A DNA stretch of 64,000 nucleotides from an uncultured Bacilli bacterium (lineage in GTDB: Bacteria > Bacillota_I > Bacilli_A > RFN20 > CAG-631). Below are positions 25,773 to 64,000 of this stretch, piece by piece. The first letter of the stretch is position 1; every line of letters starts with the position of its first letter. A program made the translations under genes and the position numbers. The notes below the pieces were generated by a model. It worked only from the letters and a program-made list of their open reading frames with translations. It searched no databases and was not told the DNA's origin. Location of the stretch: NCBI GenBank assembly GCA_947626825.1, contig CANQTM010000003.1, forward strand, positions 40,692-104,691, given 5' to 3'.

Positions 25773-25820
25773 AATAATCACCTCTGCTTAACTTATGTAG
25801 CAAATAAAATATAATATTTT

Positions 25821-25984: not shown

Positions 25985-26001
25985 GAGGGAAAAATTAAAA
26001 T

Positions 26002-27452: not shown

Positions 27453-27481
27453 AAAATATAATAATGAAAGGAAATATTATT

Positions 27482-27901: not shown

Positions 27902-27974
27902 TTCGATATAAATTAATTGCATAAAAGGTTGGCTTCATATATAATTTTGCCAACCTTTTTTATAAATTTGTTTA

Positions 27975-28469: not shown

Positions 28470-28474
28470 GATAG

Positions 28475-28978: not shown

Positions 28979-29107
28979 CTTTAGACCTCACTTTCTTTTT
29001 TATTATACAACACTAAAAGAAATTAAAGAATATAAATTTTAATTAGATTGAATTATATTTTTCCCTGAATTATAATATCTTTAGTGTTACAAGGAGACTT
29101 TACTATT

Positions 29108-45312: not shown

Positions 45313-45313
45313 T

Positions 45314-46114
45314 TTATAGTTTCGCCTCCTTATATTCATATTTTAAATAATAATCTTGTAAAATACCACGATATGAATTTTTCCATGGTTTATTACGACC
45401 AAAATAATGGATAATACTACAATTTTGCTCAACCCAATTTAAATCAATTTTATTAACTAAATGTTTTAAATTATATAAAGTAATAGTTCTATCTGATAAA
45501 TTATATTTCAAATGATCAATTTGTAAAACTTTATCTCCATATAATCCTTGTAAAACATCTTGATCAGGTAACATTAAAGTCATTCTTTTCTTTAAAATAA
45601 AGTTATAAACTTCTTTACTTTGATCAAATTTTCGTAATTCTTTTAAATTAATTAATAATACACCTGTGTTAAGATATGGAGCTTTTTTAGGAGCACCATT
45701 TTTAACTTCATTAAATTTTCTTAAAATGTTTTTAACATTACTTGAACCAATGTAATAATTACCATTAAAATCAGAATTATATAAATCACTTAAATCTTTT
45801 AATACAATTATATCAGGATCAAGATATAATATTCTATCTAAATCATTAGGTAAAAATTTAGCAGCTAATAAACGATAATAAATTACTGATGGATATCTTT
45901 TGCTAGTAGGAGCACTATCTAATATTTCATCTTCAAAATGAATAATAGTGAACTTAACATTATCTACATGATAATTTTTAAAATCAGATATTGTTAAATC
46001 ATTCGCAACTACATAAACATTTAAAATATGTTTAGAATTATTAAAAGACAAAGAATTTAACATTGTAAATAATATTTTTAAATATTTTTTATTAATTGTT
46101 ACTAAAATATTCAT
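45314..46114 (-). CDS. Glycosyltransferase family 8 protein
   Basis: GT8 pattern with YLDPDIIVLKD and NTGVLLINL. The start is at the ATG for MNILVTIN (46114) after GAGGT. It is 1 nt from the cls start. Confidence 0.65.
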   Translation of the reverse strand: MNILVTINKKYLKILFTMLNSLSFNNSKHILNVYVVANDLTISDFKNYHVDNVKFTIIHFEDEILDSAPTSKRYPSVIYYRLLAAKFLPNDLDRILYLDPDIIVLKDLSDLYNSDFNGNYYIGSSNVKNILRKFNEVKNGAPKKAPYLNTGVLLINLKELRKFDQSKEVYNFILKKRMTLMLPDQDVLQGLYGDKVLQIDHLKYNLSDRTITLYNLKHLVNKIDLNWVEQNCSIIHYFGRNKPWKNSYRGILQDYYLKYEYKEAKL

Positions 46115-46122
46115 ATAATACC

Positions 46123-47874: not shown

Positions 47875-49606
47875 CCTCCTTTTTAACTTGAGAATTATAT
47901 ATTTCTTGATAGATTTTACAATTATTTAATAATTGTTGATGATTACCATAACCAACCATTTCTCCCTTATCAAGAACAATTATTTTATCTGCATGAGCTA
48001 CAGTAGAAACTCTTTGTGAAATTATAAAAACAATAGGATTATATGATAATTTTTTTAAATTTTGACGAAAAGAAGCTTCTGTTTTATAATCAAGGGCACT
48101 TGTTGAATCATCTAAGATCAAAATAGGTGCTTTTTTTAATAAAGCTCTAGCAATTGTTAGCCTTTGTCTTTGACCGCCTGAAAAGTTTTTACCATCTTGG
48201 CTTACTTCGCTATCAAGACCTTTTTCTTTATTCAAAACAAATTCTTTAGCCATAGCTAAATTTAAAGCATCGATCATTTCTTCATCTTTAGCATTTTTAT
48301 TACCCCAAAGTAAATTTTCCTTAATAGTTCCTTTAAATAAAACGGCTTTTTGTGGAACGATAGATATCATTTCTCTTAAACTAAAAATATCTAAATTAGC
48401 AATATTAGTGCCATTTATATAAATATTACCTTCACTTGTATCATAAAAATGGGCTAATAAATTTATTAAACTAGTTTTACCACTTCCTGTTGAGCCAATA
48501 ATTCCAATAGTTTCTCCTTTGTTAACACTAAAAGAAATGTCTTTTAATGATTCTTTAGCAGAATTTTGATATGTTAAAGAAACATTATCAAAAACGACAT
48601 ATCCTGATTTATTTATAGTTTTATCATCTTTAAATTTTAATGATGATTCTTTTTTCATAATATTATCAATTCTATTAGCACAAGCAATTGATTTATTTAA
48701 AGTAATTAATAAATTAGCAAACTTAATTAATTCCACTAAAATAATAGACATATAGTTATATAAAGCAACGACTTCACCTTGAGACAAATCACCAACATTG
48801 ACCTTTAATGCCCCAAAATAAATAAGTAAAACAATGGCACCATTAATAATCAAATAAGTAAATGGATTTAATAAAGATGCTATTTTGCCAACATGTAATT
48901 GGCTTTTTGTATGATTTTCATTTAAAACATTAAATTCTTTAACTTCATCTTCTTGTTTGTTAAAAGCCCTAATAACACGAATACCATTTAAATTTTCTCT
49001 TGTGTGTTTCAATAAATTATCTTGTTTTGTTTGAACGTTTTTATATAATGGTACAGTTATTTTTGTAATTAAAAACACGACCAAAAATAATACACAAGTA
49101 ACAAATAAAAAAATCAAACCAGCTTTAATATTAATGAATAATGCCATTATAGTAGCACCAAAAACAACAATTGGTGATCTTAGCAATAAACGTAATAATA
49201 AATTAATTCCTGTTTGTACTTGATTGACATCACTAGTCATTACATTTATAAGCGATGAAAATCCTAAATTATCATATTCACTATAGGATAAAGATTGTAT
49301 TTTATTAAAAAGATTTTTTCTTAAATTAGTTGCTATATTAATTGCAGCATAAGCAGAATAATATTGAGCAATTATTGAAAATAACAAACCAATTAAAGGA
49401 AAAACAATTAATAAAATGCTAATAACAATAATATAAGTGTGATTATTTTGTTTAATACCAATATCAATTAATGAAGCGATAAGAATGGGAATAAATAATT
49501 CAAAAATAGCTTCAAAAAGTTTAAATAGAGGGCCTAAAATTGACTCCTTTTTATATTGTTTTAGCATTTTTAAAATATTTTTCATTGTTCTTTCCTCAAT
49601 TATCAC
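47858..49606 (-). CDS. ABC transporter ATP-binding/permease fusion protein (exporter, half-transporter partner)
   Basis: 582 aa. It has Walker A GSTGSGKTS, signature FSGGQRQRLTIARA and Walker B ILILDDSTSALD. It overlaps the downstream partner by 17 nt. Confidence 0.85.
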   Translation of the reverse strand: MIIEERTMKNILKMLKQYKKESILGPLFKLFEAIFELFIPILIASLIDIGIKQNNHTYIIVISILLIVFPLIGLLFSIIAQYYSAYAAINIATNLRKNLFNKIQSLSYSEYDNLGFSSLINVMTSDVNQVQTGINLLLRLLLRSPIVVFGATIMALFINIKAGLIFLFVTCVLFLVVFLITKITVPLYKNVQTKQDNLLKHTRENLNGIRVIRAFNKQEDEVKEFNVLNENHTKSQLHVGKIASLLNPFTYLIINGAIVLLIYFGALKVNVGDLSQGEVVALYNYMSIILVELIKFANLLITLNKSIACANRIDNIMKKESSLKFKDDKTINKSGYVVFDNVSLTYQNSAKESLKDISFSVNKGETIGIIGSTGSGKTSLINLLAHFYDTSEGNIYINGTNIANLDIFSLREMISIVPQKAVLFKGTIKENLLWGNKNAKDEEMIDALNLAMAKEFVLNKEKGLDSEVSQDGKNFSGGQRQRLTIARALLKKAPILILDDSTSALDYKTEASFRQNLKKLSYNPIVFIISQRVSTVAHADKIIVLDKGEMVGYGNHQQLLNNCKIYQEIYNSQVKKEDEIYG

Positions 49607-49837
49607 TTATTTTACCACATTTTAACAATATTTAACACATTTTGATAAACAAATAGGCATTTAGGGAAAATTTGTAATAACAATAAAGTTATTAAAAACA
49701 AATTTTTGTCTCTTGTTTGAGTAATTATGTCGCAAAAATTTAATTATTTATTGAAAATTAAATCATCCCTTAAATGTCAAGATAAAAAAACATTAGATAT
49801 ATTGCTTTATTTATGTTAAAATAATATCAATACATTT

Positions 49838-52462
49838 TTGGAGGGTAAAAATATGTTTAAAAAATTATTAGGTATACTCTTATTGATTGGTTTAGTAAGT
49901 TGTGATGCAAACGAAATAAGCCATTCTTTAGACTCAACACCAAGCACTCAAGATTCTTCATCTAGTAGTGCTGATGAATCTTTATCAAACTCAAATTCGA
50001 GCAGTAGTTTTGATTCATCATCTTCTAGTGATTCAAGTGCAACAGAAGTTATTACATCAATTGTAATAAATAATAAAATTGATGAATTAGTTCAAGGTTC
50101 AACGCACACATTAAATGTTGCAGTAACACCATCTTCATTGGCAAGTCAAGTTGTTTATAAATCATCATTGCCATCTTGTGCATCAATAAGTAATGATGGT
50201 CAAATAACTGCATTGCTTCCTGGTTCAACTATTATTACTGTTTCAGCACCTGATTATTCAATTAGTGATTCTTTTACATTAAAAGTAACAAAGAAAATCA
50301 TTCATGTTGAAAATGTAACTATAAATAATAGTGAAACAGAAATGGTTGAAACAACTACATTAAAATTAGATGTAACAGTTTCACCACAAGATGCCACAAA
50401 TAAAGAATTAACTTATACAAGTAGTGATAATAGTTATGCTACTGTTTCTAATGATGGACTAATTACTGCTTTAAAACCAACTCTTGAAGGACAACCAGTT
50501 GTAATAAAAGCAATTTCAAAAGATAATACTCAAATAGAAGACTCTTTATCTTTAACAATTAAAAGAAAAGCTATTTCAGTTCAAAGTATCACAGCAACAT
50601 TATTATCAAATGATATCATGCCAAATGATAAAATAAATTTTGAGGTAACATTATTACCTGAAAATGCTGATAATAAAGAATATACTGTTACAACTACAAC
50701 TCCTGAAATTTTAGAAGTTGGAAATAATAATGTTGTTACAGCTTTAAAAGAAGGTTTAGGAAAATTAACATTTACATCTAACGATGTTCCAACAGTTACT
50801 ACTAGTTTAGATGTTCCTGTATTAAAATCAACAAATTATGATTATATTAAAGAAAAATTAGCTGAAGCTTCTACTATTGAACATGAAAGTGCAAGTAGTG
50901 GACATTTTGAAAAAAATGAAAAAAGTTTTTATGATGATGAGCCAGAAGTAATTACAAATAATTGGACAGTTTATACTGATGGTGTAATGATTGATAGAAA
51001 CGATAATTTAGGTCATACAAAAAAATTATCAGTTAAAAACGGCAATATGCTTTGTGTTTTAGAAGATTCAACAAGTGACTATAGTAGTTATAATGGAGTT
51101 ACTTATGAAGAAGATGAATTCGATGATTGGTTTAATAAAGAAGAAAATGCATTCTTACCTGAAATCGAAAGTTCTAGTAATAGCGTTGGTTTATGTAACT
51201 ATATTGCTGACTATTTAGATAATTATTCATCATTCTCTAAAGACGAAATTGTTGAAAATGCTAGAGTTATAGTTAAACCAGGTAGCAATCAAGAAACAAT
51301 TACCCTAACTAGTTCGGCAGAATATAATGATTCTTATTGGGATGAAAGCGTTTCTTACATGGAAGTTAGTATGAAATTAATTTTCAATGAAAACAATGCT
51401 TTAGTAAGTTTTGAAAGTTCTTATCTTAAAATAGATAGTGATAATTATGATGCTGAAAATCATACATCAATTGACGAAAGCCAAAATGATACAACAGTTA
51501 TAAGTGCAACTATAAATTATGATACACGTGTAGCCACTGATGACAACAGAATTAAAAAAGAAGATTATTATGTCACTTCATTTGAAATTGATACATCTAA
51601 TTTTATCGATGGTAATAAAATCAATTTAAAAGAAGATGTAAATATTGCTGTTATAAATGAAGTTCCAGAAAGACACCTTGAAGAAAAATATACTGTTTCA
51701 TCAAACAACGAAAGCATTATTGAATGTTATAATTCAAATAGAACAAGTATTTGCGGCCAAAGTGAAGGACAAGCAACAATAACTGTCACTTCAGAAGGCG
51801 GTGTTTCTGCATCAATTGAACTTACTGTAATCGTTCCTGAAGTTAGTTCAATATCACTTTCTTATTTACCTTCATCTATGAGAGTTGGCGAAAAACAAGA
51901 AGAAATTTATGCTGTTGTTAATCCTAGTGGTGCAGATCAAAGTTATGAAATTGTTTTAACAGAAGATTCTAAAGATTTTGCTACTTTAGAAAAAGTAAAT
52001 GATAAATATGATTTAACTGCTATTGCTCCAGGAAAAGTAACAATCATTGCAAGAAGTTTATCTAAACCAGAAATAACTGATGAAGAAACAATTACAATTA
52101 AACCTGAACTTAACGTTGAAAGTGCTAAAGAAACATTAATCAATAACACATATTCTGCTGGATATTCTGGCAATGAAACTCTAGTATTTAATGGAGATGG
52201 AACTGGCGTACTTAAAGTTGATGGTGGTGGTGAATTTACATTTAAATGGGAACTAGTATTAACTGAAACATGGTTAGGACAATCTTTCCAATTAAATATA
52301 ACTGATATAGTGGAAATTTCTAGTTCAGAAGATGATTATTTATATAAAGGAACTACATCTACATGGACTGTTTCAGAGGATGCAGATCAAATTTCTGTAA
52401 AAATATATGATGATTTCTGGGAAGAAGATACTACACTAACTTATGAATTGGTAAGTGAATAA
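49838..52462 (+). CDS. Large surface lipoprotein with Ser-rich linker and Big_2-type Ig-like domains
   Basis: 874 aa. The N-terminus has a lipobox LVSC at MFKKLLGILLLIGLVSCD. There is a Ser-rich low-complexity stretch (aa 30-70) and a Big_2-like segment (VTSIVINN...LNVAVTPSS...ISNDGQITALLPG). Confidence 0.6.
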   Translation: MEGKNMFKKLLGILLLIGLVSCDANEISHSLDSTPSTQDSSSSSADESLSNSNSSSSFDSSSSSDSSATEVITSIVINNKIDELVQGSTHTLNVAVTPSSLASQVVYKSSLPSCASISNDGQITALLPGSTIITVSAPDYSISDSFTLKVTKKIIHVENVTINNSETEMVETTTLKLDVTVSPQDATNKELTYTSSDNSYATVSNDGLITALKPTLEGQPVVIKAISKDNTQIEDSLSLTIKRKAISVQSITATLLSNDIMPNDKINFEVTLLPENADNKEYTVTTTTPEILEVGNNNVVTALKEGLGKLTFTSNDVPTVTTSLDVPVLKSTNYDYIKEKLAEASTIEHESASSGHFEKNEKSFYDDEPEVITNNWTVYTDGVMIDRNDNLGHTKKLSVKNGNMLCVLEDSTSDYSSYNGVTYEEDEFDDWFNKEENAFLPEIESSSNSVGLCNYIADYLDNYSSFSKDEIVENARVIVKPGSNQETITLTSSAEYNDSYWDESVSYMEVSMKLIFNENNALVSFESSYLKIDSDNYDAENHTSIDESQNDTTVISATINYDTRVATDDNRIKKEDYYVTSFEIDTSNFIDGNKINLKEDVNIAVINEVPERHLEEKYTVSSNNESIIECYNSNRTSICGQSEGQATITVTSEGGVSASIELTVIVPEVSSISLSYLPSSMRVGEKQEEIYAVVNPSGADQSYEIVLTEDSKDFATLEKVNDKYDLTAIAPGKVTIIARSLSKPEITDEETITIKPELNVESAKETLINNTYSAGYSGNETLVFNGDGTGVLKVDGGGEFTFKWELVLTETWLGQSFQLNITDIVEISSSEDDYLYKGTTSTWTVSEDADQISVKIYDDFWEEDTTLTYELVSE

Positions 52463-53851
52463 TTGGAGAAAATAATAAAAATGAAAAAAATTTATTTATT
52501 ATTAGGAATTGCATTAGGACTTTGTAGTTGTGGTGGCAACACCATAACTACAAGCAATAGTTCTTCATCAAATGTTGAAGAACAAACCACTTTAAATATT
52601 ATTGGCCCTAATGAAGTTTCAATTGGTGATGTTGTCAAATATACAGTTGAACCAAACATTGATGTAAGTTTTCAAAGTTCTGATGATTTAGTTTTAAGTA
52701 TTAATGGCAGAGGTGAAGCTACAACATTTAAAGAAGGTCAAGTTACAATTACAGCAACATCTAAAGAAGATGCAAATGTTAAAGGAACTTTAAATGTTAA
52801 AGTTAATCCTGCAAAAATGCAATTACCAAATGATTATTTAGGAATTACCGAATTAATTAATAAAGCCAAAGAACTTGAAAGTTCAGCTAGCGAAATTTCA
52901 ATGGAAACAATTAAAACAGATCTTAAAGAAACAAGATTACAAAATGTTAAACTTTATGATGGTAATTTCTATATTGAAACAATTGATGATGAATACACTA
53001 ATCATTCTGGATATACACATGAAATAACTACAGTATTTAATGGCGTTTATCAAAACAATTATTATGAAATCCATGATGGAAACATAGGTAGTTATGTTAT
53101 TAAACAAAAAATTGTTGATGAAAATGCTGTTAGAGACAATAATGAAATTTTAGAAAGTGATGCTATTAAAAAAGGCACAAATCCATCTTATGTTTCAGCT
53201 TTTACTTATGATATTTATTCATTATGGGGTGCAAGAACATTAGATTTAAAAATTGATGGTGAAGTCACAAATGAAGGCATGACATTAACATTAAGTAATA
53301 TTTATCTATTTTGTTGGGCTGATGGTGTCACAAATGAATCAACATATTATGAAACGACTTTAAAATTTGATAATGATGGTTTCCTATATGAAGGAATATA
53401 TCAAGAAATCGAATATCAAGAAAATCAATATGATACAAAAATCAATGATTTTGTTGAAGATGCTGAAATAAAAGACACAAAAACTGTGACATTTAATGCC
53501 AAAAAAGGCGTAAAATTTGCAAGCAATACTTCTAACATTTTACCAACAGATTATTTTGTATCATCTGTTACTAAAGCAAATTATGCAATAGATGTACATG
53601 TTAATGATCTAATTTTAGTTAGAAATGTTGAACTTGTTGAATATGAAGGTGCTAAAGCATTAGATATTGATGAAATTAAGATAATTGATGTTATTAATGA
53701 TGATGATAAAATATTATTATCTAAGGATGCCTTTTCTGGTCAATATATGGCTATGCAAGAAGGAACTGCATATTTACTTTGTCAAATGACTTATTCAAAT
53801 GATGTTCAATTTTTAGTTGAAATAGTAATCTTACCAAAGGAAGGTGCTTAA
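52463..53851 (+). CDS. Lipoprotein with Big_2-type Ig-like domain
   Basis: 462 aa. The N-terminus MKKIYLLLGIALGLCSCGG has a lipobox. A Big_2-like region follows (LNIIGPNEVSIGDVVKYTVEP). The start abuts the previous stop. Confidence 0.55.
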   Translation: MEKIIKMKKIYLLLGIALGLCSCGGNTITTSNSSSSNVEEQTTLNIIGPNEVSIGDVVKYTVEPNIDVSFQSSDDLVLSINGRGEATTFKEGQVTITATSKEDANVKGTLNVKVNPAKMQLPNDYLGITELINKAKELESSASEISMETIKTDLKETRLQNVKLYDGNFYIETIDDEYTNHSGYTHEITTVFNGVYQNNYYEIHDGNIGSYVIKQKIVDENAVRDNNEILESDAIKKGTNPSYVSAFTYDIYSLWGARTLDLKIDGEVTNEGMTLTLSNIYLFCWADGVTNESTYYETTLKFDNDGFLYEGIYQEIEYQENQYDTKINDFVEDAEIKDTKTVTFNAKKGVKFASNTSNILPTDYFVSSVTKANYAIDVHVNDLILVRNVELVEYEGAKALDIDEIKIIDVINDDDKILLSKDAFSGQYMAMQEGTAYLLCQMTYSNDVQFLVEIVILPKEGA

Positions 53852-56216
53852 AATGAAAAAATGCTTATTTGTTTTAGCAAGTTTTCTTTTATTATCGTCT
53901 TGTCAAAATAACCAAACAAGTAATAGTTTATCAAATACAGATAGTTCTTCTTCAAGTGAAGAAATTAAAAATGAAACTGTTGAAGATATTTTAAATAAAA
54001 TAGAAGATAATTATAGTGTTGTTTATACAAGTGCTTCTGGAAAATATCATATTTATAAAACAAAAAATTATTTTTATGATGAAGAAATTGGTGGCGGACA
54101 ATTTGTTTTAGATGACGATACAATGTATATATATACTGTTCATAACAATGTAATCGTTCCAAGAAATAAATATTCAGCAACTAGAACTGATTTTGAAAAT
54201 TTCTTTCCAAAATTTGAAGTTAACATGGATAAATTTGAAATAATAGATGACATGTATGTTACTTCTGATGCACAAACCATGACAAGTTTATGCAAATTAA
54301 TTAATATGTCTTCTTATAATCGTGCAGAATTATTCATGGATGATAATTTTCTTAATTTTAGATTTTATGATAATTACAATCGCATGTTGGTTAGTGGTAA
54401 ATTTTATGGGGTTGGTGAAACAAATTACAATATTTTAGATGAATATCTTAATCAAAAAATTGCACCAGAAACAGAAACTTACACAAATAGTCCACTAATT
54501 GATGTATTAGGCGATTTAAATAATAATATGACATTTGTTGGACAAAGTGTTACTTCCCATGAAGGCTTATCATTATTATTAACAGATAAATATTTAGCCA
54601 CTTTTTCAGGTAATGGTAAACAAATATCTGATGGTGATGGCTATTTACAATTAAATGACAATTTACATCAATTTACATTAAAAGATAATAAATTAGATGT
54701 AGATTATGAATATCTTGATACTGATGAAACATTAGACATGAAAAGTTTTACTCTTCAAAGACATGATTTTACAAAATTTAAAGAAATAGATACTAATACA
54801 TATATTTCAAGCGATTATTATAATGTTAAAAATTTAACAGATTTTCTATTATTAGATGCGCAAAATGTTAATTTAGTCAAAATAAAAGTTGACACAACAT
54901 CTAAAGAAGCAGAAATAACTTTTTTACAAGATCAAGTTGAATTATATACTGGAAGAATATTTAACATTAACTCTTCATCATTACCTCAACTTGATGAATA
55001 TTTAGAAAACAAATCCGAACCAGCATTGAAATATTATGAAAATAGTGAATTAATGGCTGCTGTTGCTAACTTAAATGATAATTTTACATATATTCGCGAT
55101 GATTTAACTCCACAAGATAATAATGAAGAAGGAATTGAATTTTATGGTGTACGATCAACTGTTAATGGTCGTAAAGAATACAAATCATATTATAATAATT
55201 TCCCATCAACTGATTATATCACTTATAATCAAAAAGCTTATCATTATGTATTAAATGGAGATAGTATCATTCTTAAAAATAATGGTTCAATATCAAAAAA
55301 TAAATATGAAGAATATTTTTCTTTTTCAAAAATTAATTTTCATTATTTTGAACCTTTAGGAAATAATAAATATTTTACTTCATCAACAAGAATATTAAGA
55401 CAATTATCAAAATTAATCAGTTCAAATCCATATAATTTAGGACGTTGTTATATAAGTATTGAAAATGGAACTATAAATATTGAAATGCAAGATCAATACT
55501 TAAATACTAATTCTATAGGTCATCTTGAAAAAATAAACGAAACCTCTTTACCAATGGTTGATAATTATAAAACAAATAATCAAGATGAAAACAATTTATT
55601 TCCAAAATATAATAATAGTAAAATTAAAGATGTTGTTAAACAAATCAATGATGGTAATAATTTTACAGTTGCTTATCAAGATGATATAGAATATGGCATA
55701 GAATTTACTGCAGATGATTATGATTATTATACAAATGAAACTATTTATTATGGTATGTATAAAGATGGTTTTATAACTGGATCGTTATCAAAATATATTT
55801 ATAATTTTGGTTGGGTAACTGATGAAGAAACAGAAGTTAGAGAATTCACATTAAGTGATCATCCATCATTATATTTAAGTAGTATGGCAGAAATGAATCC
55901 TTTCCAATCATTAAGTGATGACATGATTGATAGATTTGTTCCATATCAAAACAACAAATTTCTATCATTAGATGAAGATATTTGTAGCGTATTTAGTTTG
56001 GCACTACAAATGGGCGGTGTTGTTGATGTTGTTGGAGTTATGTTAAGTTTTAATAATAAAAATGAATTAGTAATTGAAGTTATTGATGAAATTGAAGTTA
56101 CTTATGACGAAAACAACATTCGTAACGAAGAATATATTGTTTTTGCAACAGCAATTATTACTGATGTAGGCACTACAAAAATTCCATCAAATGCTCTTAT
56201 TCCAACAATGAAATAA
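53844..56216 (+). CDS. Large hypothetical lipoprotein
   Basis: 790 aa. The signal and lipobox MKKCLFVLASFLLLSSCQNN are present. It overlaps the previous gene by 8 nt. No other domain was recognised. Confidence 0.5.
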   Translation: MLKMKKCLFVLASFLLLSSCQNNQTSNSLSNTDSSSSSEEIKNETVEDILNKIEDNYSVVYTSASGKYHIYKTKNYFYDEEIGGGQFVLDDDTMYIYTVHNNVIVPRNKYSATRTDFENFFPKFEVNMDKFEIIDDMYVTSDAQTMTSLCKLINMSSYNRAELFMDDNFLNFRFYDNYNRMLVSGKFYGVGETNYNILDEYLNQKIAPETETYTNSPLIDVLGDLNNNMTFVGQSVTSHEGLSLLLTDKYLATFSGNGKQISDGDGYLQLNDNLHQFTLKDNKLDVDYEYLDTDETLDMKSFTLQRHDFTKFKEIDTNTYISSDYYNVKNLTDFLLLDAQNVNLVKIKVDTTSKEAEITFLQDQVELYTGRIFNINSSSLPQLDEYLENKSEPALKYYENSELMAAVANLNDNFTYIRDDLTPQDNNEEGIEFYGVRSTVNGRKEYKSYYNNFPSTDYITYNQKAYHYVLNGDSIILKNNGSISKNKYEEYFSFSKINFHYFEPLGNNKYFTSSTRILRQLSKLISSNPYNLGRCYISIENGTINIEMQDQYLNTNSIGHLEKINETSLPMVDNYKTNNQDENNLFPKYNNSKIKDVVKQINDGNNFTVAYQDDIEYGIEFTADDYDYYTNETIYYGMYKDGFITGSLSKYIYNFGWVTDEETEVREFTLSDHPSLYLSSMAEMNPFQSLSDDMIDRFVPYQNNKFLSLDEDICSVFSLALQMGGVVDVVGVMLSFNNKNELVIEVIDEIEVTYDENNIRNEEYIVFATAIITDVGTTKIPSNALIPTMK

Positions 56217-56230
56217 TAATTATAATTAAC

Positions 56231-56272
56231 AAAACTCTGTAATTTGATTAATTCATTTTATAGAGTTTTTTT
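56231..56272 (+). terminator. Rho-independent terminator after the lipoprotein operon
   Basis: aaaactctgtaa...tatagagttttttt: inverted repeat aactct/agagtt plus a T-run. Confidence 0.5.
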
Positions 56273-56400
56273 TACTTTTTTATATAATTATGTAGAAAAA
56301 ATATTTTTTAAAAAAATAACCTTTTTATATTATTAAAAAATGTTAATAAAACAATAAAAAAATGTTAAAATAATATTACAACATCTATTGGAGAAAAGAT

Positions 56401-59400
56401 ATGGGAAATATTGATAACAAATTCGAAATTTGGACAAAAAAACTTTATGATATATCTAAAAAAAATTATATGATTAATTTTAGAGGGCAAAAAAATCGAT
56501 GTTTAACAATAACTAAGCCTGATATTTTTGAATTATATGATTCTTTAGTATTTAAAGATAATTCTATGTCTTTTAAAAGAGCAATTACTGCTGATACAAA
56601 TTTCAATATTTTTGCTATTAATACTTTAATTAATTGTTTAGGTAATAGTACCATTTTTGAAGAAGGAGATATTTCTGTTGCACCGAAAGTCAACAAAACC
56701 CCATATTTTATTTTAAGAAACATTAAGAAAACTGCTAATTTTTTTAAACAAGAACAAGGCATTGATGTCATGTATATGACTTTTTTATATGTAAGATGGC
56801 ATCCAATTGGCTCAACAGATGAATATTTAACACCTTTAGTTAATGTTCCTGTTTCTTTAGAACAAGATAATATCTATTCATTATTTATATTAAAAAAACA
56901 AGGTGAACCTGAAATAAACCCAATATTTTTATATATGTTAGAGCAACAACAAATGACAATACCTTCTATAAATGACAAACCATTAAAAGAATATTTGGTA
57001 GAATTAGAAAAAATATTTGCAGATTTGGATTTTGAAATAATTCAACAGGCTAATCTATGTGTACTATTTTTCCAAAAAATGGTAATGTTTAAAGATTTAG
57101 TAAATAATAAAGAAAGAATTATAAATCATCCAATCATTAAAATGTTTTGTAATGATAATGAAGAAAATACGATTTTTGATTTAGATAATTTTCCACAAAT
57201 AAAAGAAAGCCAAAAAATTGTTGTAATTGATGCAGATTCAAGTCAAAGCAAGGCTTTAGATTTAGCAACTCAAGGGCAATCATTTGTATTGCAAGGCCCA
57301 CCTGGAACTGGCAAAAGTCAAACAATTACTAATATAATAGCAAGTCAAATATATCAAGGCAAAAAAATTCTATTTGTCTCGCAAAAGACTGCCGCTTTAG
57401 AAGTTGTTTTTAATATGCTTAAGAAAATTGGACTTAGTGATTTAGCCTTAACTTTACATAACAATAACAAATTAAATAAAAATGAAATTATAAATGAAAT
57501 TTATGCTCCTTTTTCATTTAAAAAGTTTAATGTTAAAGAAGAAAAAATAAATTATTTAATGAAAATCGATCAAATTTTAAATGATTTAGAACAATATAAT
57601 GAACTTTTAAATACCAAAGTTTATTCATTAAATGATACATTATATGAATTAATTAATAAATATTTTGATCTTATAGAAATATCAAAAAGTAATTTTAAAA
57701 TTAATTTTGATTTAACTTCATTAGATTATAAAACACTTCTAGAAAATGTAAATTCAATTAATCTTTTTGAAAACGAATGGAAATCAATTACAATAAATAA
57801 TGATGATTGTTATGATTATTTTGCTATTGACGATATATCATTACAAACCAAAGAAAAATTAGATAACGATTTATTATTAATTTACAATAAAATTGAACCA
57901 TTAGTAAACACATACTTGAATTTAAAAAAATATATTAGTAATTTATCTTTAACTTTTGATAATTCTTTAAATATTTTAGACGATTTAAATAAATTAAATA
58001 ATATTGATTTTAATGATATTAAAATAAACAATATTGAACTTTTAAATGAATATATCGATGATATTAATTTTTATTTAAAAAGTGATGAAGACTTAAAAAA
58101 GACATACCAAGAAATAAATAATATTTTTTATGATAATATTTTTAATATTGATATGAAAGAATTAGCAAATATTATTGAAAATAATCTTAATATTATTAAA
58201 ACTAATATTAAAGATTTTGCTAATTGTTCACATTACGAAATAATGCAACAATTAAATAATTATGCTAATAGTCTTAATAATTTTATCAATAATAAGGAAA
58301 CATTTGATAAAACAACTAATTATTTAACAACTTTATTACATGTTTCTTTGGATACTTTATTATCTTATGACTTATACCATATAAATGAAGAATTAAAAAA
58401 TAACACATATTCTTTAAGTTATTTTTCTGTAGCTTATAGTAATTATGATGTTGTTATAAATAATTTAAATAGATATAAAGAATTAAAAGAAAACCAAAAA
58501 CATTTAAAAAAATTAATTACTAATTTATCATATGAAGCTATTTTAACTTTAAATGAAAATCAAGTAGATAATTATTTAATTATTTTAGATGAAAAAACTA
58601 ATTGGTTTAATTTTAGTAAAAAAGAAGCTAAAAAAGATGTTATTAATAAAATATCAACTTATTTATACGATAATCAAACAAATATAGAAACTGTTATAAA
58701 CATTTTACATCTTGTTAAAAATTATCAAGAAATTACTAATCACTTAAAGCAATTAGGTCAAGCAATAAAGCCATTATTAAATGACACGATTAATCTTGAT
58801 AATAGTGAAATTGACTGCCAAAGTTATATCAATGAATTAGACAAATTGCATCATATTATTATATTATTACCAAATGTTAAAGAAAATATTTTAAAAAGTA
58901 TTTTAAGTTTTGATAATGCTTTAAATTTTAAAAATAATCTTTACAATCTTTTAGAATGTTTACCAATGGTTATAAATAATTATGATAATGATTTACAAAC
59001 TTTAATAGAAAACGAAAAAATTGTAAATGAAACATTAAAATTTGTTAACACATTAAAATTATATTGTAAAGATTTTACACTATTAAAAGATATTGAAAAC
59101 AAATATATTTATTTAAAAAATTATGCTAAAATCAAACAAGAAAATCAAGAAAAGAAAACTATTTTAGATAATATTTTTACATATGATATTTTAAAATCAA
59201 AAAAGCAATTATTTTATATAAATCAAATTAATTGTTTTGCCAAAACATATAATTTAAATCAAAACGAATTATTATTAAATTTAATAAATCACTCAAAAGA
59301 TATTTTCTTTCTTATTTTGCAATTTAAAGAAAGATATAGCCAATCTTTACCATCATATAATCATTTTAAAGAAATGTTTACCAAAGAAAAAAATCTTGAA

Positions 59401-61809
59401 AATTATGATTTAAAAGAATTGTTAGATTTAATTTATCGTTGTCAATTGAATATTAACACATTAAAAGATAAGAAAAGATTTAATAAAAATTTAATAAATT
59501 ATCGTTCAAATCCTTATTTAACCAATTTTATTGATTATTGTCTTGAAAATAATTTAAAAGAAGATTTAGCTAATATTTATTTAAAAAAGATTTATCATAA
59601 TTTAATTGAAAATTTTATTTATGATAATGATATTTTAGAAAATTTAAATAAAACAAAATTAGATAATGATATAAAAGAATTAGAAAAATTAAGTTATTAT
59701 CAAATGGAAATTTCAAGACAACAAGTGAAAAGTGCTTGGATAGATAATGTTCCATCGATTAAAACAATAATGGCTAGTAATGATGAAAGAAACTTTTTAC
59801 AAAATGAAAAAAGAAAAGTTAGAAAAAAATCATTAAGAGTAATTTTAGATCACATACCTCATATTTTAATGGCATTAAAACCATGTTTGATGATGTCACC
59901 ATTAACTGTTTCTAATTATCTTGAAAATGATAATTATGATTTTGATTTAGTTATTTTTGATGAAGCTTCACAAATAAAACCAGAAGAAGCAATCGGATCA
60001 ATTTATCGAGGAAAACAAGTTATAATTGCTGGTGATAGCAAACAATTACCACCAACAAGTTTCTTTGAAAAACAAATAGAAAATGATGAAGATTATGATG
60101 ATGAAGACATCGATGAAACTATTGATGAATCAATTTTAGATTTAGCATCTAGAAAATTACCATCAATCACTTTATTATGGCATTATCGTAGTAAAATTGA
60201 AAGTTTAATTGCTTTTTCTAATAATAATTTTTATGACAATGAATTAATAACTATTCCATCTGCTAAACAAAATCAAATTGATTATGGCATTGAATATATT
60301 AAAGTTGATGGCATTTATGAAAAAAATAGCCGTTATGCTAATGTTATCGAAGCCAAAAAGGTTGTAGAATTAATTTATCAACATATTTTAAACCATAATG
60401 ATAAATCATTAGGAATCATTGCTTTTGGCGAAAGACAAAGAAATACTATTGAAAAAGTATTATTTGATTATCGAAAAAATTTAAAAAATCAAGATGAAAA
60501 GCTTTTTAAAGAAAGTGAAGAATTCTTTAATAATAATGATAAAGAACCATTTTTTATTAAAAATATTGAAAATGTTCAAGGCGATGAAAGAGATGTCATT
60601 ATATTTTCAATAGGTTATGGTCCTGATGAAGAAAATAACTTTAAATATAATTTTGGACCTTTGTCGAAACAAGGCGGACAAAGAAGATTAAATGTCGCTA
60701 TTTCAAGAGCAAAATATAATCTTAAAATAGTTTGTTCTTTTTTACCAACTGATTTAGAATTATCACGAATTGAATCTGAAGGTGGACGTTTATTTAAAGA
60801 ATATCTTGAATATGCCCAAATGGTTTCACTTGGTATTCATAAATTTAATGATGATATTTTATCAGTTGATGGTGTAAAAGCAAGCATTGCATCATTTTTA
60901 CATGAAAATGGTTATAAATATTTATTAAACTATGGCTATTCGTCTTTTAAAATCGATATTGCTATATTTAATCCTAATGATGATAAGCAATTAATTTGTG
61001 GAATTATAATTGATAATCAAGATGCTAATATTACCATTAAAGATAAAGAAGTTATTCTAAAAAAAGTTTTATATTATAATGAATGGAAAATTTACAATGT
61101 AAATTGCAAACTTTATTTTGAAAATCCTTCATTTATTAATGAAAACATTTTAGAATTCTTAAACAATAATATAGTTGAAGAAAAAATTGATTTAATAACC
61201 ACTGATGAAAATGATTTAATTACTATTAAAGAAGATGAAAGTGATGATACTAGTTATAATTTTATATTATATCAAGAATTTGATTTTAATGAATATTTAG
61301 CTATTAATGGTTTAACAGATGTCAAACTTTGGGTCATTGATGAAAAAATAATGACTGCATTTTTAAACAAAGAAGGTCCAACTTTATTTAAAATATTAGT
61401 TGATAAATTTGCTAAAGCATTTAATGCAACAGCAAAAGAAATAACAGGTAGTATTCAAAAAGTTATCACAAAAGAACCATTTATATGGAATCGACAAAAT
61501 AACTTTGTTTATAATAGTCATGAAAATCCTTGTATTGTTCGTCAATGCATTGATAACAAAAGTAGAAGTTTTGAAAGTATTTATCCATTAGAAATTAGTA
61601 ATTGCTTAACCACAATTATTCGTCAAAATATTGGTTTATCTGCTGATGGCATTATTGAAGAAGCTATGCGTATTTATAATCAAAAAAATAAATCTGCATC
61701 TTTAATAATAAATTATAAAACACATTTAGAACGTTTAAAAGAAGATAAAAAAATTCAAGAAATAAATGGCGTCTATACAATTTATCAAGGAGGGAAAAAT
61801 CATGAATGA
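56401..61809 (+). CDS. Giant SF1 (Upf1/DNA2-like) helicase with DUF4011-like N-terminal domain and C-terminal Vsr/DUF559-like PD-(D/E)xK nuclease plus DUF3320-like tail
   Basis: 1802 aa. Walker A VLQGPPGTGKSQTITNII is at about aa 297. About 800 aa of K/N/L/I-rich low-complexity helical insertion follows. Motif II is VIFDEASQ, motif III IIAGDSKQLPPT, motif VI GGQRRLNVAISRAKYNL. After that, FKIDIAIFNPND...GIIIDNQD looks like an endonuclease core. Domain names are from recall of this architecture and are not searched. Confidence 0.75.
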   Translation: MGNIDNKFEIWTKKLYDISKKNYMINFRGQKNRCLTITKPDIFELYDSLVFKDNSMSFKRAITADTNFNIFAINTLINCLGNSTIFEEGDISVAPKVNKTPYFILRNIKKTANFFKQEQGIDVMYMTFLYVRWHPIGSTDEYLTPLVNVPVSLEQDNIYSLFILKKQGEPEINPIFLYMLEQQQMTIPSINDKPLKEYLVELEKIFADLDFEIIQQANLCVLFFQKMVMFKDLVNNKERIINHPIIKMFCNDNEENTIFDLDNFPQIKESQKIVVIDADSSQSKALDLATQGQSFVLQGPPGTGKSQTITNIIASQIYQGKKILFVSQKTAALEVVFNMLKKIGLSDLALTLHNNNKLNKNEIINEIYAPFSFKKFNVKEEKINYLMKIDQILNDLEQYNELLNTKVYSLNDTLYELINKYFDLIEISKSNFKINFDLTSLDYKTLLENVNSINLFENEWKSITINNDDCYDYFAIDDISLQTKEKLDNDLLLIYNKIEPLVNTYLNLKKYISNLSLTFDNSLNILDDLNKLNNIDFNDIKINNIELLNEYIDDINFYLKSDEDLKKTYQEINNIFYDNIFNIDMKELANIIENNLNIIKTNIKDFANCSHYEIMQQLNNYANSLNNFINNKETFDKTTNYLTTLLHVSLDTLLSYDLYHINEELKNNTYSLSYFSVAYSNYDVVINNLNRYKELKENQKHLKKLITNLSYEAILTLNENQVDNYLIILDEKTNWFNFSKKEAKKDVINKISTYLYDNQTNIETVINILHLVKNYQEITNHLKQLGQAIKPLLNDTINLDNSEIDCQSYINELDKLHHIIILLPNVKENILKSILSFDNALNFKNNLYNLLECLPMVINNYDNDLQTLIENEKIVNETLKFVNTLKLYCKDFTLLKDIENKYIYLKNYAKIKQENQEKKTILDNIFTYDILKSKKQLFYINQINCFAKTYNLNQNELLLNLINHSKDIFFLILQFKERYSQSLPSYNHFKEMFTKEKNLENYDLKELLDLIYRCQLNINTLKDKKRFNKNLINYRSNPYLTNFIDYCLENNLKEDLANIYLKKIYHNLIENFIYDNDILENLNKTKLDNDIKELEKLSYYQMEISRQQVKSAWIDNVPSIKTIMASNDERNFLQNEKRKVRKKSLRVILDHIPHILMALKPCLMMSPLTVSNYLENDNYDFDLVIFDEASQIKPEEAIGSIYRGKQVIIAGDSKQLPPTSFFEKQIENDEDYDDEDIDETIDESILDLASRKLPSITLLWHYRSKIESLIAFSNNNFYDNELITIPSAKQNQIDYGIEYIKVDGIYEKNSRYANVIEAKKVVELIYQHILNHNDKSLGIIAFGERQRNTIEKVLFDYRKNLKNQDEKLFKESEEFFNNNDKEPFFIKNIENVQGDERDVIIFSIGYGPDEENNFKYNFGPLSKQGGQRRLNVAISRAKYNLKIVCSFLPTDLELSRIESEGGRLFKEYLEYAQMVSLGIHKFNDDILSVDGVKASIASFLHENGYKYLLNYGYSSFKIDIAIFNPNDDKQLICGIIIDNQDANITIKDKEVILKKVLYYNEWKIYNVNCKLYFENPSFINENILEFLNNNIVEEKIDLITTDENDLITIKEDESDDTSYNFILYQEFDFNEYLAINGLTDVKLWVIDEKIMTAFLNKEGPTLFKILVDKFAKAFNATAKEITGSIQKVITKEPFIWNRQNNFVYNSHENPCIVRQCIDNKSRSFESIYPLEISNCLTTIIRQNIGLSADGIIEEAMRIYNQKNKSASLIINYKTHLERLKEDKKIQEINGVYTIYQGGKNHE

Positions 61810-63499
61810 AAATATTAATCGTGAAACATTATTAAACCCTTTATTATTCAATGATAAAAGTGAAACGACAAATAATGATGATGAAAACAATGATGTAATC
61901 AACAAAGATACTATTTTAAATAATAAATATCTAATTATTGATAGACTTCAAGATTCATCATCAAAAACACAAGTTTATGTAGCTAAATATAATAATCAAT
62001 ATTATACACTTAAAGTTTATAATAAAGATTTTAAAATTTCTTTAGATATTTTAGATATCTTAAAAAAATTAGAATTTGATTATCTTGAAAAAATATATGA
62101 ATTTTTTGAACTTGATGATCAAAGACAAGTTATTGTTAGTAAATATTATTTAAATGGAAATTTAAAAGACAAAAAAATTTCTATAAAAGATTTAAAAGAC
62201 TATATAATTCCATCATTAAATGAAGCAATAAATATTTTGCATGAAAATCACATTTTACATATGGATATTAAACCTGCTAATATTATGTTTGCCGATGATA
62301 AAAAACATGTTGTTTTAATCGATTATAGTTCAGCATTAAAAATAAATAATATAAAAGATGTAATAATTTGCCAAAAGCCATTTATTACACCTCATTATAG
62401 TGCTATTGAAACATGTACTTCTCACCAATGTTCTATTTATTCAGATTATTATTCATTTGGAATTACTTTATATGAATTATTATTAGGACATAGTCCTTTT
62501 ATAAATTTAGATGATGAACAGATTATTCGTTTTATGCAAACTAATAGATTAGCCTTTGATGAGTCAATTGATTTGAATTTTAAAAATTTAATTTTAGGAT
62601 TAACTTATCGTGATATTGCCAATCGTAATGATTATAATAATTTTAATGTTCGTTGGACTTATAAACAAGTATCTGATTGGTTAAATGGTAAAACAATGAT
62701 TGTTCCTGGTGAAGGTATATTAACAAAAACAAATATAATGCCATTTAATTTTAAAAATAAAGTTTATTTAAATGTAGATGAATTAATTGATGCTTTAGCA
62801 ATAAATTGGAATGATGGCATTAGATGTTTAAGTTCAAAAAATTTATCAAATTATTTTAAAAACATTAATCATCAATATTACGAAATAACATTAAATTTTG
62901 AAATTAAATTTTTTGATAAAAACATTAAAATTAATCCTGATGTAGAATTTTTTAAATATATTTATACATTATTACCACAAACAAGTAAATTTTATTATAA
63001 AGGATTTGTTTATGAATCTATACAAGATTTAGGTTTTGCTTTAATTGATACATTAGATGCCAATAAAGACACAGAAACATCAGCAAACTTTTTTAAAAAT
63101 TTATTAAAGAACAAAATATTATCAACTTATTGCTCATTGAAATCAATTGATAACCAAGAAATGATTGACATGATAAAAGAAATTGAAAATACTTTTCAAA
63201 GTGAACTTTTGACTAATAGAGAGAAACAAAAAAATCTATATACATTAAGTTACATTCTTACAGGGCAAAAAGAATATAAAATAGATGATCAAATTTTTAA
63301 CAATAAAGATGATTTTATTAATTATATTGTTGATGCCTATAAAAAGTCATTTACCGATTTGAATAAAATTTGTAAAACATTAATGCCAAGACGCAATTTA
63401 GATGTTAAATTAGAAGCGTGGCTTGATGCATTAGGTTATAAAAATGAAGTTAATAAATTTATTGCCTTAATTACTACTCAAGGAGGTGATGAGGAATGA
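61802..63499 (+). CDS. Eukaryotic-like Ser/Thr protein-kinase-like protein with about 280-aa uncharacterised C-terminal domain
   Basis: The start is at ATG 61802 after AGGAGGG and overlaps the helicase stop by 8 nt. Kinase motifs are a beta3 Lys (YTLKVY), a catalytic loop HMDIKPANIMF, a DYS in the DFG position, and an APE-like TPHYSAIE...SDYYSFGITLYELLLGHSPF. Confidence 0.65.
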   Translation: MNENINRETLLNPLLFNDKSETTNNDDENNDVINKDTILNNKYLIIDRLQDSSSKTQVYVAKYNNQYYTLKVYNKDFKISLDILDILKKLEFDYLEKIYEFFELDDQRQVIVSKYYLNGNLKDKKISIKDLKDYIIPSLNEAINILHENHILHMDIKPANIMFADDKKHVVLIDYSSALKINNIKDVIICQKPFITPHYSAIETCTSHQCSIYSDYYSFGITLYELLLGHSPFINLDDEQIIRFMQTNRLAFDESIDLNFKNLILGLTYRDIANRNDYNNFNVRWTYKQVSDWLNGKTMIVPGEGILTKTNIMPFNFKNKVYLNVDELIDALAINWNDGIRCLSSKNLSNYFKNINHQYYEITLNFEIKFFDKNIKINPDVEFFKYIYTLLPQTSKFYYKGFVYESIQDLGFALIDTLDANKDTETSANFFKNLLKNKILSTYCSLKSIDNQEMIDMIKEIENTFQSELLTNREKQKNLYTLSYILTGQKEYKIDDQIFNNKDDFINYIVDAYKKSFTDLNKICKTLMPRRNLDVKLEAWLDALGYKNEVNKFIALITTQGGDEE

Positions 63500-64000
63500 G
63501 CGGACCAAAATATAATCGTTACCGTATGTTAGAAGCAAAAAGAAGAGAATTATTGAAATTGCAAATTCAAAAAGAATTATATAATAAAGAAAATGTTCGA
63601 GTAAATAAATTAATTATTGCTGAAAATGATGGTATTACAGTCGCCAAACGCCAAATTGATAAGCAAAAAGAAGTAACATTAAAAAATATTAAAACATATT
63701 TAAATAATATTAAAATTGAATTAGAAAAATTGAAAAATAATAGCGACACTATTATAGCAATCAACGATGATTCAATTTTAAAGTTTTATAATGAATATTA
63801 CCAAATTTATCAAAATCTTGTTATTGAAAGTTCTTATTTAAACAATACAGTAACATTAAAAGAATTAGATAAATATTATCAAAAAATTAACAATACTTTT
63901 TTTGAAATATGTAATTATAATATTACTTCATTAAAAAAAGTAAAACAAAAAGAAAAACAACTAAAAGTTGATCTATCTAATAAATTAAATGATAATTTAG
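63496..64000 (+). CDS. Hypothetical coiled-coil protein, partial (runs off window end)
   Basis: ATG 63496 overlaps the kinase stop (ATGA) and follows GGAGGTGATGAGGA. The frame stays open for 168 codons to the window end (MSGPKYNRYRMLEAKRRELLKLQIQ...). It is not in the supplied track because no stop codon is reached. Confidence 0.55.
   Translation, partial: MSGPKYNRYRMLEAKRRELLKLQIQKELYNKENVRVNKLIIAENDGITVAKRQIDKQKEVTLKNIKTYLNNIKIELEKLKNNSDTIIAINDDSILKFYNEYYQIYQNLVIESSYLNNTVTLKELDKYYQKINNTFFEICNYNITSLKKVKQKEKQLKVDLSNKLNDNL

Follow-up and report, generated by a model that had tools for sequence, protein, structure and literature searches.

The DNA stretch analyzed here, called the window, comprises 64,000 nucleotides of contig CANQTM010000003.1 (positions 40,692 to 104,691 of the forward strand; assembly GCA_947626825.1) from an uncultured Bacilli bacterium. 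Close to its 3′ end, a gene coding for a protein kinase (61802..63499, plus strand) is located between an upstream helicase-nuclease gene (56401..61809, plus strand) and the 5′ part of a gene for a coiled-coil protein, of which 168 codons (63496..64000, plus strand; translation MSGPKYNRYRML...) run to the window end. The listed open reading frame (ORF) of the kinase spans 61766..63499 (plus strand), and its product consists of 565 amino acids, encoded from the ATG at 61802 to the stop codon. This start is supported by a Shine-Dalgarno sequence AGGAGG at 61788..61793 (plus strand, 8 nt spacing), by the equivalent methionine, which is the start in the aligned kinase homologs, and by the independent ENA contig L007, on which the identical 565-residue kinase is called from the same start. 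The kinase start overlaps the stop of the helicase ORF, which encodes 1802 amino acids, by 8 nt, and the kinase stop codon shares the sequence ATGA (63496-63499) with the next ATG. A second AGGAGG can be read in front of the coiled-coil gene (63481..63486, plus strand). The corresponding gene of L007 is called from a position 4 nt ahead of the kinase stop, and the window copy was matched to the coiled-coil proteins of related loci by BLASTP. A scan of positions 56100-64000, which covers the helicase/kinase and kinase/coiled-coil junctions, found no terminator-like sites, and a sigma-70 promoter scan was uninformative (98 sites against 83 expected, in DNA with a GC content of 21-25%).

The kinase domain comprises residues ~41-295 (61922..62686, plus strand), as delimited by Pfam, PDB alignments, AlphaFold2 and Foldseek. 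It matches the Pfam family Pkinase (PF00069) with E=1.9e-25 and 90.2 bits (cutoff 31.7), and an HMMER search against PDB sequences returned 1394 matches at E<=0.01, of which the best 60 are all protein kinases. The assignment is beyond chance because of this score and these matches. An AlphaFold2 model built from 21 homologs has a mean predicted local distance difference test (pLDDT) score of 81.6, with values mostly of 85-95 over residues 40-270. Only protein kinases were found when the model was compared with PDB using Foldseek, the top matches being two CaMKK1 structures (6cd6_C, E=5.0e-14; 6ccf_A, E=5.5e-14, TM 0.85 normalized on the target). The ORF thus encodes a genuine Hanks-type protein kinase, which exceeds the PF00069 cutoff, has the predicted fold and possesses the catalytic residues.

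Four motifs of the domain had been quoted in an earlier note on this DNA, made from the letters alone, and all of them as well as the ORF itself were found in place. The lysine K71 lies in YTLKV (residues 68-72, nt 62003-62017), the catalytic loop reads HMDIKPAN (residues 153-160, nt 62258-62281), the position of DFG is taken by DYS (residues 174-176, nt 62321-62329) and that of APE by AIE within SAIE (residues 200-203, nt 62399-62410, with E203), all on the plus strand. The last two equivalences follow from the HMMER alignments with twitchin and STK33. The window kinase retains K71, H153, D155, K157, N160, D174 and E203, and carries D82 at the alpha-C position; K71, D155, N160, D174 and E203 do not vary in the homolog alignment A1. 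It lacks a canonical glycine-rich loop, a full DFG and a full APE, which does not disqualify it from membership of the fold. The kinase assignment of the earlier note is upheld by the Foldseek result.

For the analysis of the gene neighborhood, one genome per species was scanned, which yielded 80 loci, and the ORFs called at these loci were classified by BLASTP. Nearly all hosts are anaerobic Firmicutes and most belong to the Clostridia (Lachnospiraceae, Oscillospiraceae, Ruminococcus, Clostridium drakei, Desulfosporosinus, Blautia). Further hosts are Negativicutes (Mitsuokella multacida DSM 20544, Selenomonadales) and one metagenome-assembled genome of the Erysipelotrichaceae. On long contigs a recurrent, co-oriented order was found, which runs from the helicase-nuclease over the kinase, the coiled-coil protein, a Zn-ribbon/FHA protein, a radical SAM (rSAM) enzyme, in some cases a BspA-type leucine-rich repeat (LRR) protein of the LRR_5 family, an AAA+ ATPase and a PP2C phosphatase to a DUF4236 protein. 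These five to nine genes form a conserved, tightly packed cassette which is led by the kinase as its first core gene. Among the 48 loci in which the downstream sequence extends over 9 kb or more, the coiled-coil protein is encoded in 46, the rSAM enzyme in 45, and the FHA protein and the AAA+ ATPase in 44 each; the PP2C phosphatase is found in 33, the DUF4236 protein in 21 and the LRR protein in 12. Judging by this co-occurrence, the downstream coiled-coil, FHA, rSAM and AAA+ genes appear to be near-obligate partners of the kinase. The helicase-nuclease gene is located directly upstream of the kinase gene in 41 of the 56 loci with at least 6.5 kb of upstream sequence (73%), the window included.

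The nearest relatives of the window kinase are encoded at the loci L004, L005, L008 and L010 (53-61% identity), and their operons consist of helicase, kinase, coiled-coil, FHA, rSAM and AAA+ genes and then end. The same gene order is visible in the PGAP annotation of a 44 kb plasmid of Aristaeella lactis (NZ_CP069422.1, locus L094), in which the cassette genes bear generic names only. Clostridia that are abundant in the human and ruminant gut carry the cassette, which is therefore relevant to gut phage-host dynamics. One of them is Pseudoruminococcus massiliensis, for which the sequence collection holds 247 blocks with the same cassette variant.

The partner proteins look functional as far as their motifs tell. 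The coiled-coil protein has 430-455 amino acids in related loci and contains no Pfam domain; its 63 aligned sequences share the consensus MSGPK.s.Y.Lt with an invariant MSGPK N-terminus, and a conserved globular domain is located at the C-terminus. The FHA protein (~206 amino acids) carries two Zn ribbons followed by an intact phosphothreonine (pThr)-binding signature (GR...SR.HA...N). The rSAM protein (182-204 amino acids, Fer4_12 and Radical_SAM) has an invariant CxxxCxxC motif and a GGDP motif. It matches the NrdG model TIGR02491 with E=1.3e-31 and 109.6 bits, just below the cutoff of 126.1, and its best solved relative is PflA (3c8f, 1.5e-7); it probably belongs with the activases of glycyl-radical enzymes (NrdG/PflA clade). 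Three invariant glycine loops, VPGEG of the kinase, MSGPK of the coiled-coil protein and GLGG of the FHA protein, are candidate sites for a radical or modification. The AAA+ protein (~620 amino acids, AAA_2/ClpB_D2-small) is built as a single D2-like ring. Its Walker A, Walker B and ClpB-type pore loop motifs read GPTGTGKT, DEIEKA and GAPPGYVGY, respectively, and its conserved N-domain belongs to no recognized family. In the PP2C phosphatase, the metal-binding aspartate motifs are present.

Around the cassettes, 106 nearest flanking genes were compared. They are heterogeneous, and no further conserved flank gene recurs among them except a metallo-beta-lactamase (MBL)-fold gene following the DUF4236 gene, which was found in 5 loci. 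A cluster of genes for proteins of ~320-340 amino acids (L038:15802-16821, L063:17181-18185, L082:18120-19088, L089:17221-18174, L062:1613-2932) lies directly 3′ of the DUF4236 gene in four of its five loci and upstream of the kinase gene in L062. Five of the 106 flank genes match Lactamase_B (MBL fold) and are probably the same five; the gene may encode an additional effector. In L094 the PP2C gene is followed by a gene for a DUF6273 protein and by a second, paralogous kinase of 952 amino acids with extra C-terminal repeats (21043-25415), and a DUF4236 gene, a hypothetical gene and an ion-transporter gene are located upstream on the opposite strand. In L001 an Ion_trans gene lies 3′ of the DUF4236 gene. 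The operon of L010, the closest relative at genome level, adjoins the housekeeping genes nrdD and nrdG for anaerobic ribonucleotide reductase (L010:678-3384), so that this genome holds a bona fide NrdG in addition to the NrdG-like paralog of the operon. A paralogous kinase of 791 amino acids (P0117; kinase, module and DUF6273) is encoded without a cassette at L092/L093:9544-12376, with a small DUF6273 gene in front; two serine recombinases and prophage genes for structural proteins and lysis are its neighbors.

The helicase-nuclease encoded upstream of the kinase combines, according to Pfam, DUF4011 (8.4e-18), a superfamily 1 (SF1) helicase (AAA_11, 1.1e-17; AAA_12, 8.6e-18) and a restriction endonuclease (REase)-like MTES_1575 domain (2.5e-08). 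In PADLOC it strongly matches PDC-S37 (1.8e-272, 905.7 bits), with the best stretch joining helicase residues 986-1793 to positions 746-1545 of the 1550-position profile, and Hhe is matched as well (7.6e-116). It shares the DUF4011, SF1 helicase and REase-like architecture with Hhe, PDC-S37 and ProA. However, these are catalogued as stand-alone systems, whereas the window helicase is translationally coupled to the kinase cassette and falls below the NCBIfam cutoffs, with 566 bits against 2000 for Hhe (NF042953) and 881.8 bits against 1500 for ProA (NF058533), for which the L001 ortholog reaches 1293.5 bits. A literature search found no experimental report on PDC-S37 and no source for the NCBIfam name ProA.

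Helicase and kinase genes could also represent two independent neighboring systems of a defense island, in which case the kinase would have no link to a nucleic-acid enzyme. The helicase gene is indeed absent from 15 of the 56 loci with enough upstream sequence (e.g., L006), and its relatives Hhe and PDC-S37 are catalogued as single-gene systems. Against this, order and strand are constant across many families with the helicase immediately upstream, stop/start overlaps with the kinase gene occur in L016, L018, L019, L023 and L034-L036 with small gaps of a few nucleotides being common elsewhere, no terminator separates the two genes in the window, and a fusion of kinase and SF1 helicase exists in the MkoA profiles. 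Two independent systems are therefore considered somewhat unlikely, and a coupling of the helicase-nuclease to the kinase cassette is preferred. The suggestion of the earlier note that the kinase is coupled to a nucleic-acid enzyme fits the adjoining helicase gene but missed the main downstream partners, namely the coiled-coil, FHA, rSAM and AAA+ proteins.

The window helicase carries an insertion of ~800 amino acids rich in asparagine, lysine and isoleucine (window positions 57500-59900), which separates the Walker A region (residues ~280-365) from the C-terminal part of AAA_11 (residue 1161 onward). The GC content drops to 18% in 58001-60000, compared to ~25% in the window.

The state of the window kinase was assessed in an alignment of 188 unique family members. 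The catalytic loop reads HKDLKPSNIM in 171 of them and conforms to HxDxKPxN in 187, the HMDIKPANIM of the window being a unique variant. DFG is present in 186 members and its aspartate in all 188; DYS occurs in the window sequence only, and DFS once, in P0001, which is the nearest relative of the window kinase and identical to the L008 kinase. At the APE site most of the family has SAPE, and SAIE was found in five members, which all belong to the clade of the window. The P-loop, with the consensus (S/T)GEADLY and a single glycine, reads SSKTQVY in the window, so that this glycine is replaced by lysine, and the alpha-C glutamate (KPEV in the family) is replaced by the aspartate D82. Taken together, DYS, AIE, the missing P-loop glycine and the alpha-C aspartate suggest that the window copy is the most derived member of the family. 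Nature has provided here a test case for how many of the canonical motifs such a kinase can do without.

The rate of divergence is also unusual. Canonical pairs of comparable divergence (4995 in number) served as the reference, and in these the identity of the kinase domain exceeds that of the C-terminal half by 12 ± 5.5 points. This is reversed in the pair of window kinase and P0001, with 59% identity in the kinase domain versus 65% in the C-terminal module, and among the canonical pairs a value of -0.06 corresponds to the first percentile. The faster divergence of the kinase domain therefore speaks for relaxed or shifted constraint on this domain in the DYS/DFS sub-lineage. Accordingly, the protein could be a pseudokinase, or a kinase with strongly attenuated activity, which would be retained in this lineage as a scaffold or sensor by means of its C-terminal module and tail. 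Such a loss would fit the four derived motifs and the reversed conservation, as well as the operons of the clade, which lack a PP2C phosphatase. In typical pseudokinases, however, the Lys/Asp/Asp set is incomplete by one residue or more, whereas K71, D155, K157, N160, D174 and E203 are kept in the window kinase and in every clade member. The alpha-C aspartate also occurs in L085, an otherwise canonical member, and operons without PP2C elsewhere keep fully canonical kinase motifs, so that the loss of PP2C is no predictor of decay. A pseudokinase is thus a minority reading that still deserves some weight. Haspin is an active kinase despite having DYT for DFG and no APE. Because all residues directly involved in phosphotransfer are kept, the window kinase is rated as probably still catalytic, although possibly attenuated.

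The idea that motif decay compensates for the loss of PP2C was rejected. Ten of 50 operons lack PP2C, and in the seven of these with readable motifs outside the clade of the window the kinase motifs are canonical.

In the earlier note the kinase had been called atypical but probably active. DYS and AIE are real in this copy but are no features of the family, which is canonical in DFG and APE. The catalytic lysine and aspartate residues are conserved in the homologs, as had been expected, and activity remains the probable state, although the lost P-loop glycine, the alpha-C aspartate and the faster divergence of the kinase domain make it weaker than claimed.

The kinase domain is connected to the C-terminal half by a flexible linker with a V-P-G-E-G loop (residues 301-305; 62702..62716, plus strand). 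In the homolog alignment (A1), P302, G303 and E304 are invariant and G305 is conserved to at least 90%; the adjoining residues 306-311 have pLDDT values <50. The C-terminal module (residues ~312-560; 62735..63481, plus strand) consists of three repeats, each formed by a beta-hairpin (residues 315-322, 397-404 and 492-499) and a subsequent helical bundle. Modeled alone, this half reaches a pLDDT of 84.4 and a predicted template modeling (pTM) score of 0.74, and the repeats were aligned to each other by hhalign with P=2e-4, 3e-3 and 6e-3. Pfam gave no match for the window protein and no consistent match for 15 homologs, a profile search against PDB sequences gave nothing credible (best E=0.055), PDB and BFVD contained no matching fold, and there is no NCBIfam entry. 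This agrees with the previous statement that the C-terminal ~280 amino acids show no recognizable motif.

Among 1.84 billion representative proteins, a profile of this half matched 896 clusters at E<=1e-3, and with the stricter limit of E<=1e-10 still 439. Of the 93 listed module matches with at least 450 amino acids, 92 have the same type of kinase immediately N-terminal. Larger module proteins contain additional repeat copies and added DUF6273, DUF285 (BspA-type LRR) or HIRAN domains. By these searches, the C-terminal half is a widespread kinase-coupled repeat module without annotation so far. Its description as novel therefore stands with respect to annotation, but it is not unique to this protein. 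A role as a sensor or docking domain is plausible because of the position and variability of the module. With ~900 clusters it merits a family entry and is a candidate sensor domain.

At the other end of the protein, an N-terminal tail (residues 1-40; 61802..61921, plus strand) is predicted to be disordered, with pLDDT <50 for residues 1-30. It carries the T-x-[ILVM]-N motifs TLLNP (residues 9-13) and TILN (residues 37-40). Across the 188 family members this motif occurs 2.8 times per tail, versus 0.22 times in shuffled sequences, and the tail is also present in larger paralogous architectures. At the tail site DVIN (residues 31-34; 61892-61903), aspartate stands for the threonine of the family, which could be phosphomimetic or the result of simple decay. 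Docking of the FHA protein on the TxIN tail was rejected as an explanation, since the tail is equally common in paralogs without an FHA neighbor, and is kept merely as a possibility.

The components were compared with known defense systems. Every known defense kinase model aligns with the kinase domain only and fails curated cutoffs. The best PADLOC match of the kinase is Mad6 of the MADS system (4.6e-30, 103 bits), which is likewise a Hanks-type kinase in a multigene defense locus. However, only kinase residues 56-271 align, the C-terminal module differs, no methyltransferase or other MADS partner is encoded in the operon, and the NCBIfam model NF047741 gives 59.2 bits against 460, with residues 128-239 only. 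A comparison with PglW of BREX type 2, as drawn in the earlier note, is not supported by the profile hidden Markov models, as NF033442 yields 25.9 bits against 990 and the PADLOC model of PglW matches residues 125-233 only (6.6e-07).

The Mokosh type I protein MkoA resembles the window pair in combining a Ser/Thr kinase with an AAA_11/AAA_12 helicase, which are fused in MkoA, and its PADLOC model PDLC03920 matches kinase residues 37-280 (1.2e-17) and helicase residues 1174-1448 (1.8e-32). In the window, however, kinase and helicase are encoded by separate, overlapping genes, and the nuclease is of the MTES_1575 REase-like type instead of a phospholipase D (PLD) partner. Mokosh has neither DUF4011 nor the FHA/rSAM/AAA+ cassette, and a PLD gene (MkoB) is part of the operon at none of the loci. 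The PLD gene of the window (43780-45339) is Cls-like, is encoded on the opposite strand and lies 11 kb away.

In the KKP system of Pf prophages (PfkA/PfkB/PfpC), Ser/Thr kinase, FHA and PP2C functions cooperate in phage defense, with the phosphatase acting as a restraint (PMC11341870). KKP is thus a precedent for the kinase, FHA and PP2C logic proposed for the cassette. It is, however, a three-gene, prophage-borne system of Gram-negative bacteria with FHA and CSD domains fused to its kinases, in which PP2C is followed by two CSD/FHA kinases of ~300-430 amino acids. The cassette has a single kinase with another C-terminal module and no CSD or FHA domain, its FHA domain resides in a Zn-ribbon protein of its own, rSAM, AAA+ and coiled-coil genes are present in addition, and its PP2C gene lies downstream or, being dispensable, is absent, as in 10 of 50 loci. 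A further precedent in defense for signaling from a kinase/phosphatase to an FHA protein is the Esr pathway (PMC13622651).

Hanks kinase, PP2C, FHA protein and a ClpB-family AAA+ protein are also found together in the PpkA/PppA/Fha1/ClpV loci of the type VI secretion system (T6SS), and the cassette AAA+ protein matches TssH/ClpV1 with 5.5e-67, below the cutoff. The cassette loci differ in having no T6SS structural genes, in their Firmicutes hosts, in the added rSAM and coiled-coil proteins and in the single D2-like ring of the AAA+ protein with its unrelated N-domain. Stk2 and PD-T4-6 each consist of a Hanks kinase with an uncharacterized C-terminal region that acts in phage defense, but they are single genes; matches to PD-T4-6 reach 2.8e-20 and are confined to the kinase domain, and Stk2 was compared by description only.

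No credible PADLOC match was obtained for the coiled-coil, FHA, rSAM, PP2C and DUF4236 proteins; the coiled-coil protein gave weak partial ZorA matches (3.7e-07, 1.6e-05) and the other four none. The AAA+ protein matches DolB and PDC-M37B in the ATPase core only, and in NCBIfam release 20 no cassette component is named as part of a system. No system or description matching the cassette was found in PADLOC 2023, NCBIfam 2026, the PGAP annotation and the full-text literature. As far as these resources show, the cassette is an undescribed variant among phosphorylation-based conflict systems, and the window kinase is a new member of a large kinase family lacking annotation.

The best explanation, held with moderate confidence, is that the kinase-led cassette would be a phosphothreonine-switched system of anaerobic Firmicutes against phages or other mobile elements. 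A defense role is suggested because the helicase matches PDC-S37 and is related to the anti-phage proteins Hhe and ProA, the distribution is patchy, one copy is located on a plasmid, and mobile or defense genes are found nearby. The plasmid copy of Aristaeella lactis lies next to a WYL gene, and the neighbors at some loci include serine recombinases, TnpV, GmrSD, AbiEii as well as type IIG and type IV restriction genes. The patchy distribution is consistent with horizontal transfer.

In the proposed mechanism, the kinase would sense a trigger through its C-terminal repeats, possibly aided by the LRR protein in some loci and by fused DUF285 or DUF6273 domains in paralogs. Once activated, it would phosphorylate threonines of its own TxIN tail and/or of partner proteins. 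The pThr mark would be read by the FHA adaptor and coupled to the AAA+ unfoldase, the rSAM enzyme and, if present, the helicase-nuclease, and PP2C, where encoded, would reset the switch. More specifically, and put forward tentatively as possible rather than probable, the cassette may constitute a previously undescribed immune system in which pThr and the Zn-ribbon/FHA protein license an activase-type rSAM enzyme together with a Clp-like unfoldase, and often the helicase-nuclease. If so, this would introduce protein-directed radical chemistry to anti-phage defense, along with a new kinase-coupled sensor domain. A defense function in general would add an architecture to phosphorylation-based immunity as known from Stk2, KKP, MADS, BREX type 2 and Mokosh I, and would tie a Ser/Thr kinase and a pThr reader to an AAA+ unfoldase, an rSAM activase and a helicase-nuclease in a manner that can be tested.

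Several observations weigh against a defense switch of this kind. The defense-island signal is modest, with roughly 10-15% of the nearest neighbors and heterogeneous flanks, and the window flanks are ordinary chromosomal genes (Cls-like PLD, GT8, ABC exporters, lipoproteins). A pattern scan of the viral contigs of IMG/VR found no copies, and the INPHARED phage genomes gave matches at the level of the kinase domain only. Apart from the helicase, the components match validated defense proteins merely at the level of generic domains. Among the operon genes no glycyl-radical-type partner for the rSAM enzyme is evident, and the operons of the nearest relatives contain neither PP2C nor DUF4236. Since the window ends at position 64000, the cassette genes past the coiled-coil gene were read from related loci. 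The paralogs without an FHA neighbor that carry the tail suggest that FHA docking on the TxIN motifs has no specific support. Lastly, the lost P-loop glycine, DYS, AIE and the faster-diverging kinase domain of the window copy suggest that the constraint on catalysis has been relaxed or has shifted. A phage-borne origin of the cassette was rejected on account of the IMG/VR and INPHARED results.

Some of these points would suit an accessory module of anaerobes for stress response or proteostasis, in which pThr would direct clients to the Clp-like unfoldase while the rSAM enzyme repairs or modifies protein. Both in C. thermosuccinogenes and in the window the locus lies amid ordinary chromosomal genes, IMG/VR and INPHARED yielded no phage-borne copies, and a housekeeping precedent for a kinase-to-Clp logic is the phospho-arginine tagging by McsB/ClpC. 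Such a module is nevertheless distinctly improbable in view of the patchy distribution with a plasmid copy and neighboring recombinases, TnpV, AbiEii, restriction-modification and GmrSD genes, the coupling of an Hhe-like helicase-nuclease to the cassette in 73% of the loci, and the variation of accessory sensor-like parts (LRR, DUF6273), which is typical of conflict systems.

The combination of kinase and rSAM enzyme further allows for a maturation cluster similar to those of ribosomally synthesized and post-translationally modified peptides (RiPPs), with a LanL/LanKC-like kinase domain and an rSAM enzyme acting on a small precursor. Weak matches of the kinase domain to the NCBIfam models of class III and class IV lanthionine synthetases (3.2e-12 and 8.6e-11, far under the cutoffs), small ORFs interspersed in some loci and a weak PDB match of the rSAM protein to the peptide-modifying YydG (0.0034) would fit. 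However, no lyase or cyclase domain, conserved precursor gene, exporter or protease was found, the small ORFs show no conservation between loci, and FHA, PP2C and AAA+ proteins are not RiPP components, which makes such a cluster hardly credible. A pThr-switched defense system thus remains the preferred reading of the cassette; its defense role and mechanism are inferred from gene content and neighborhood.

Some further features were observed in the window. Directly upstream of the operon, three tandem genes (49838-56216) encode proteins of 874, 462 and 790 amino acids with lipoprotein-like N-termini, i.e., a cysteine soon after a hydrophobic leader; the first contains Big_2 domains, and the other two belong to no Pfam family. 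A DUF5677 protein of 386 amino acids (6e-15) is encoded at 29901-31061, adjoining a MurA-like gene of the EPSP_synthase family (31144-32406). The GC skew changes its sign near 27-28 kb, at the cumulative minimum, and dips a second time at 44-50 kb, tracking switches of the gene strand. This pattern (~24000-30000 and ~44000-50000) may indicate a replication origin or merely reflect gene orientation.

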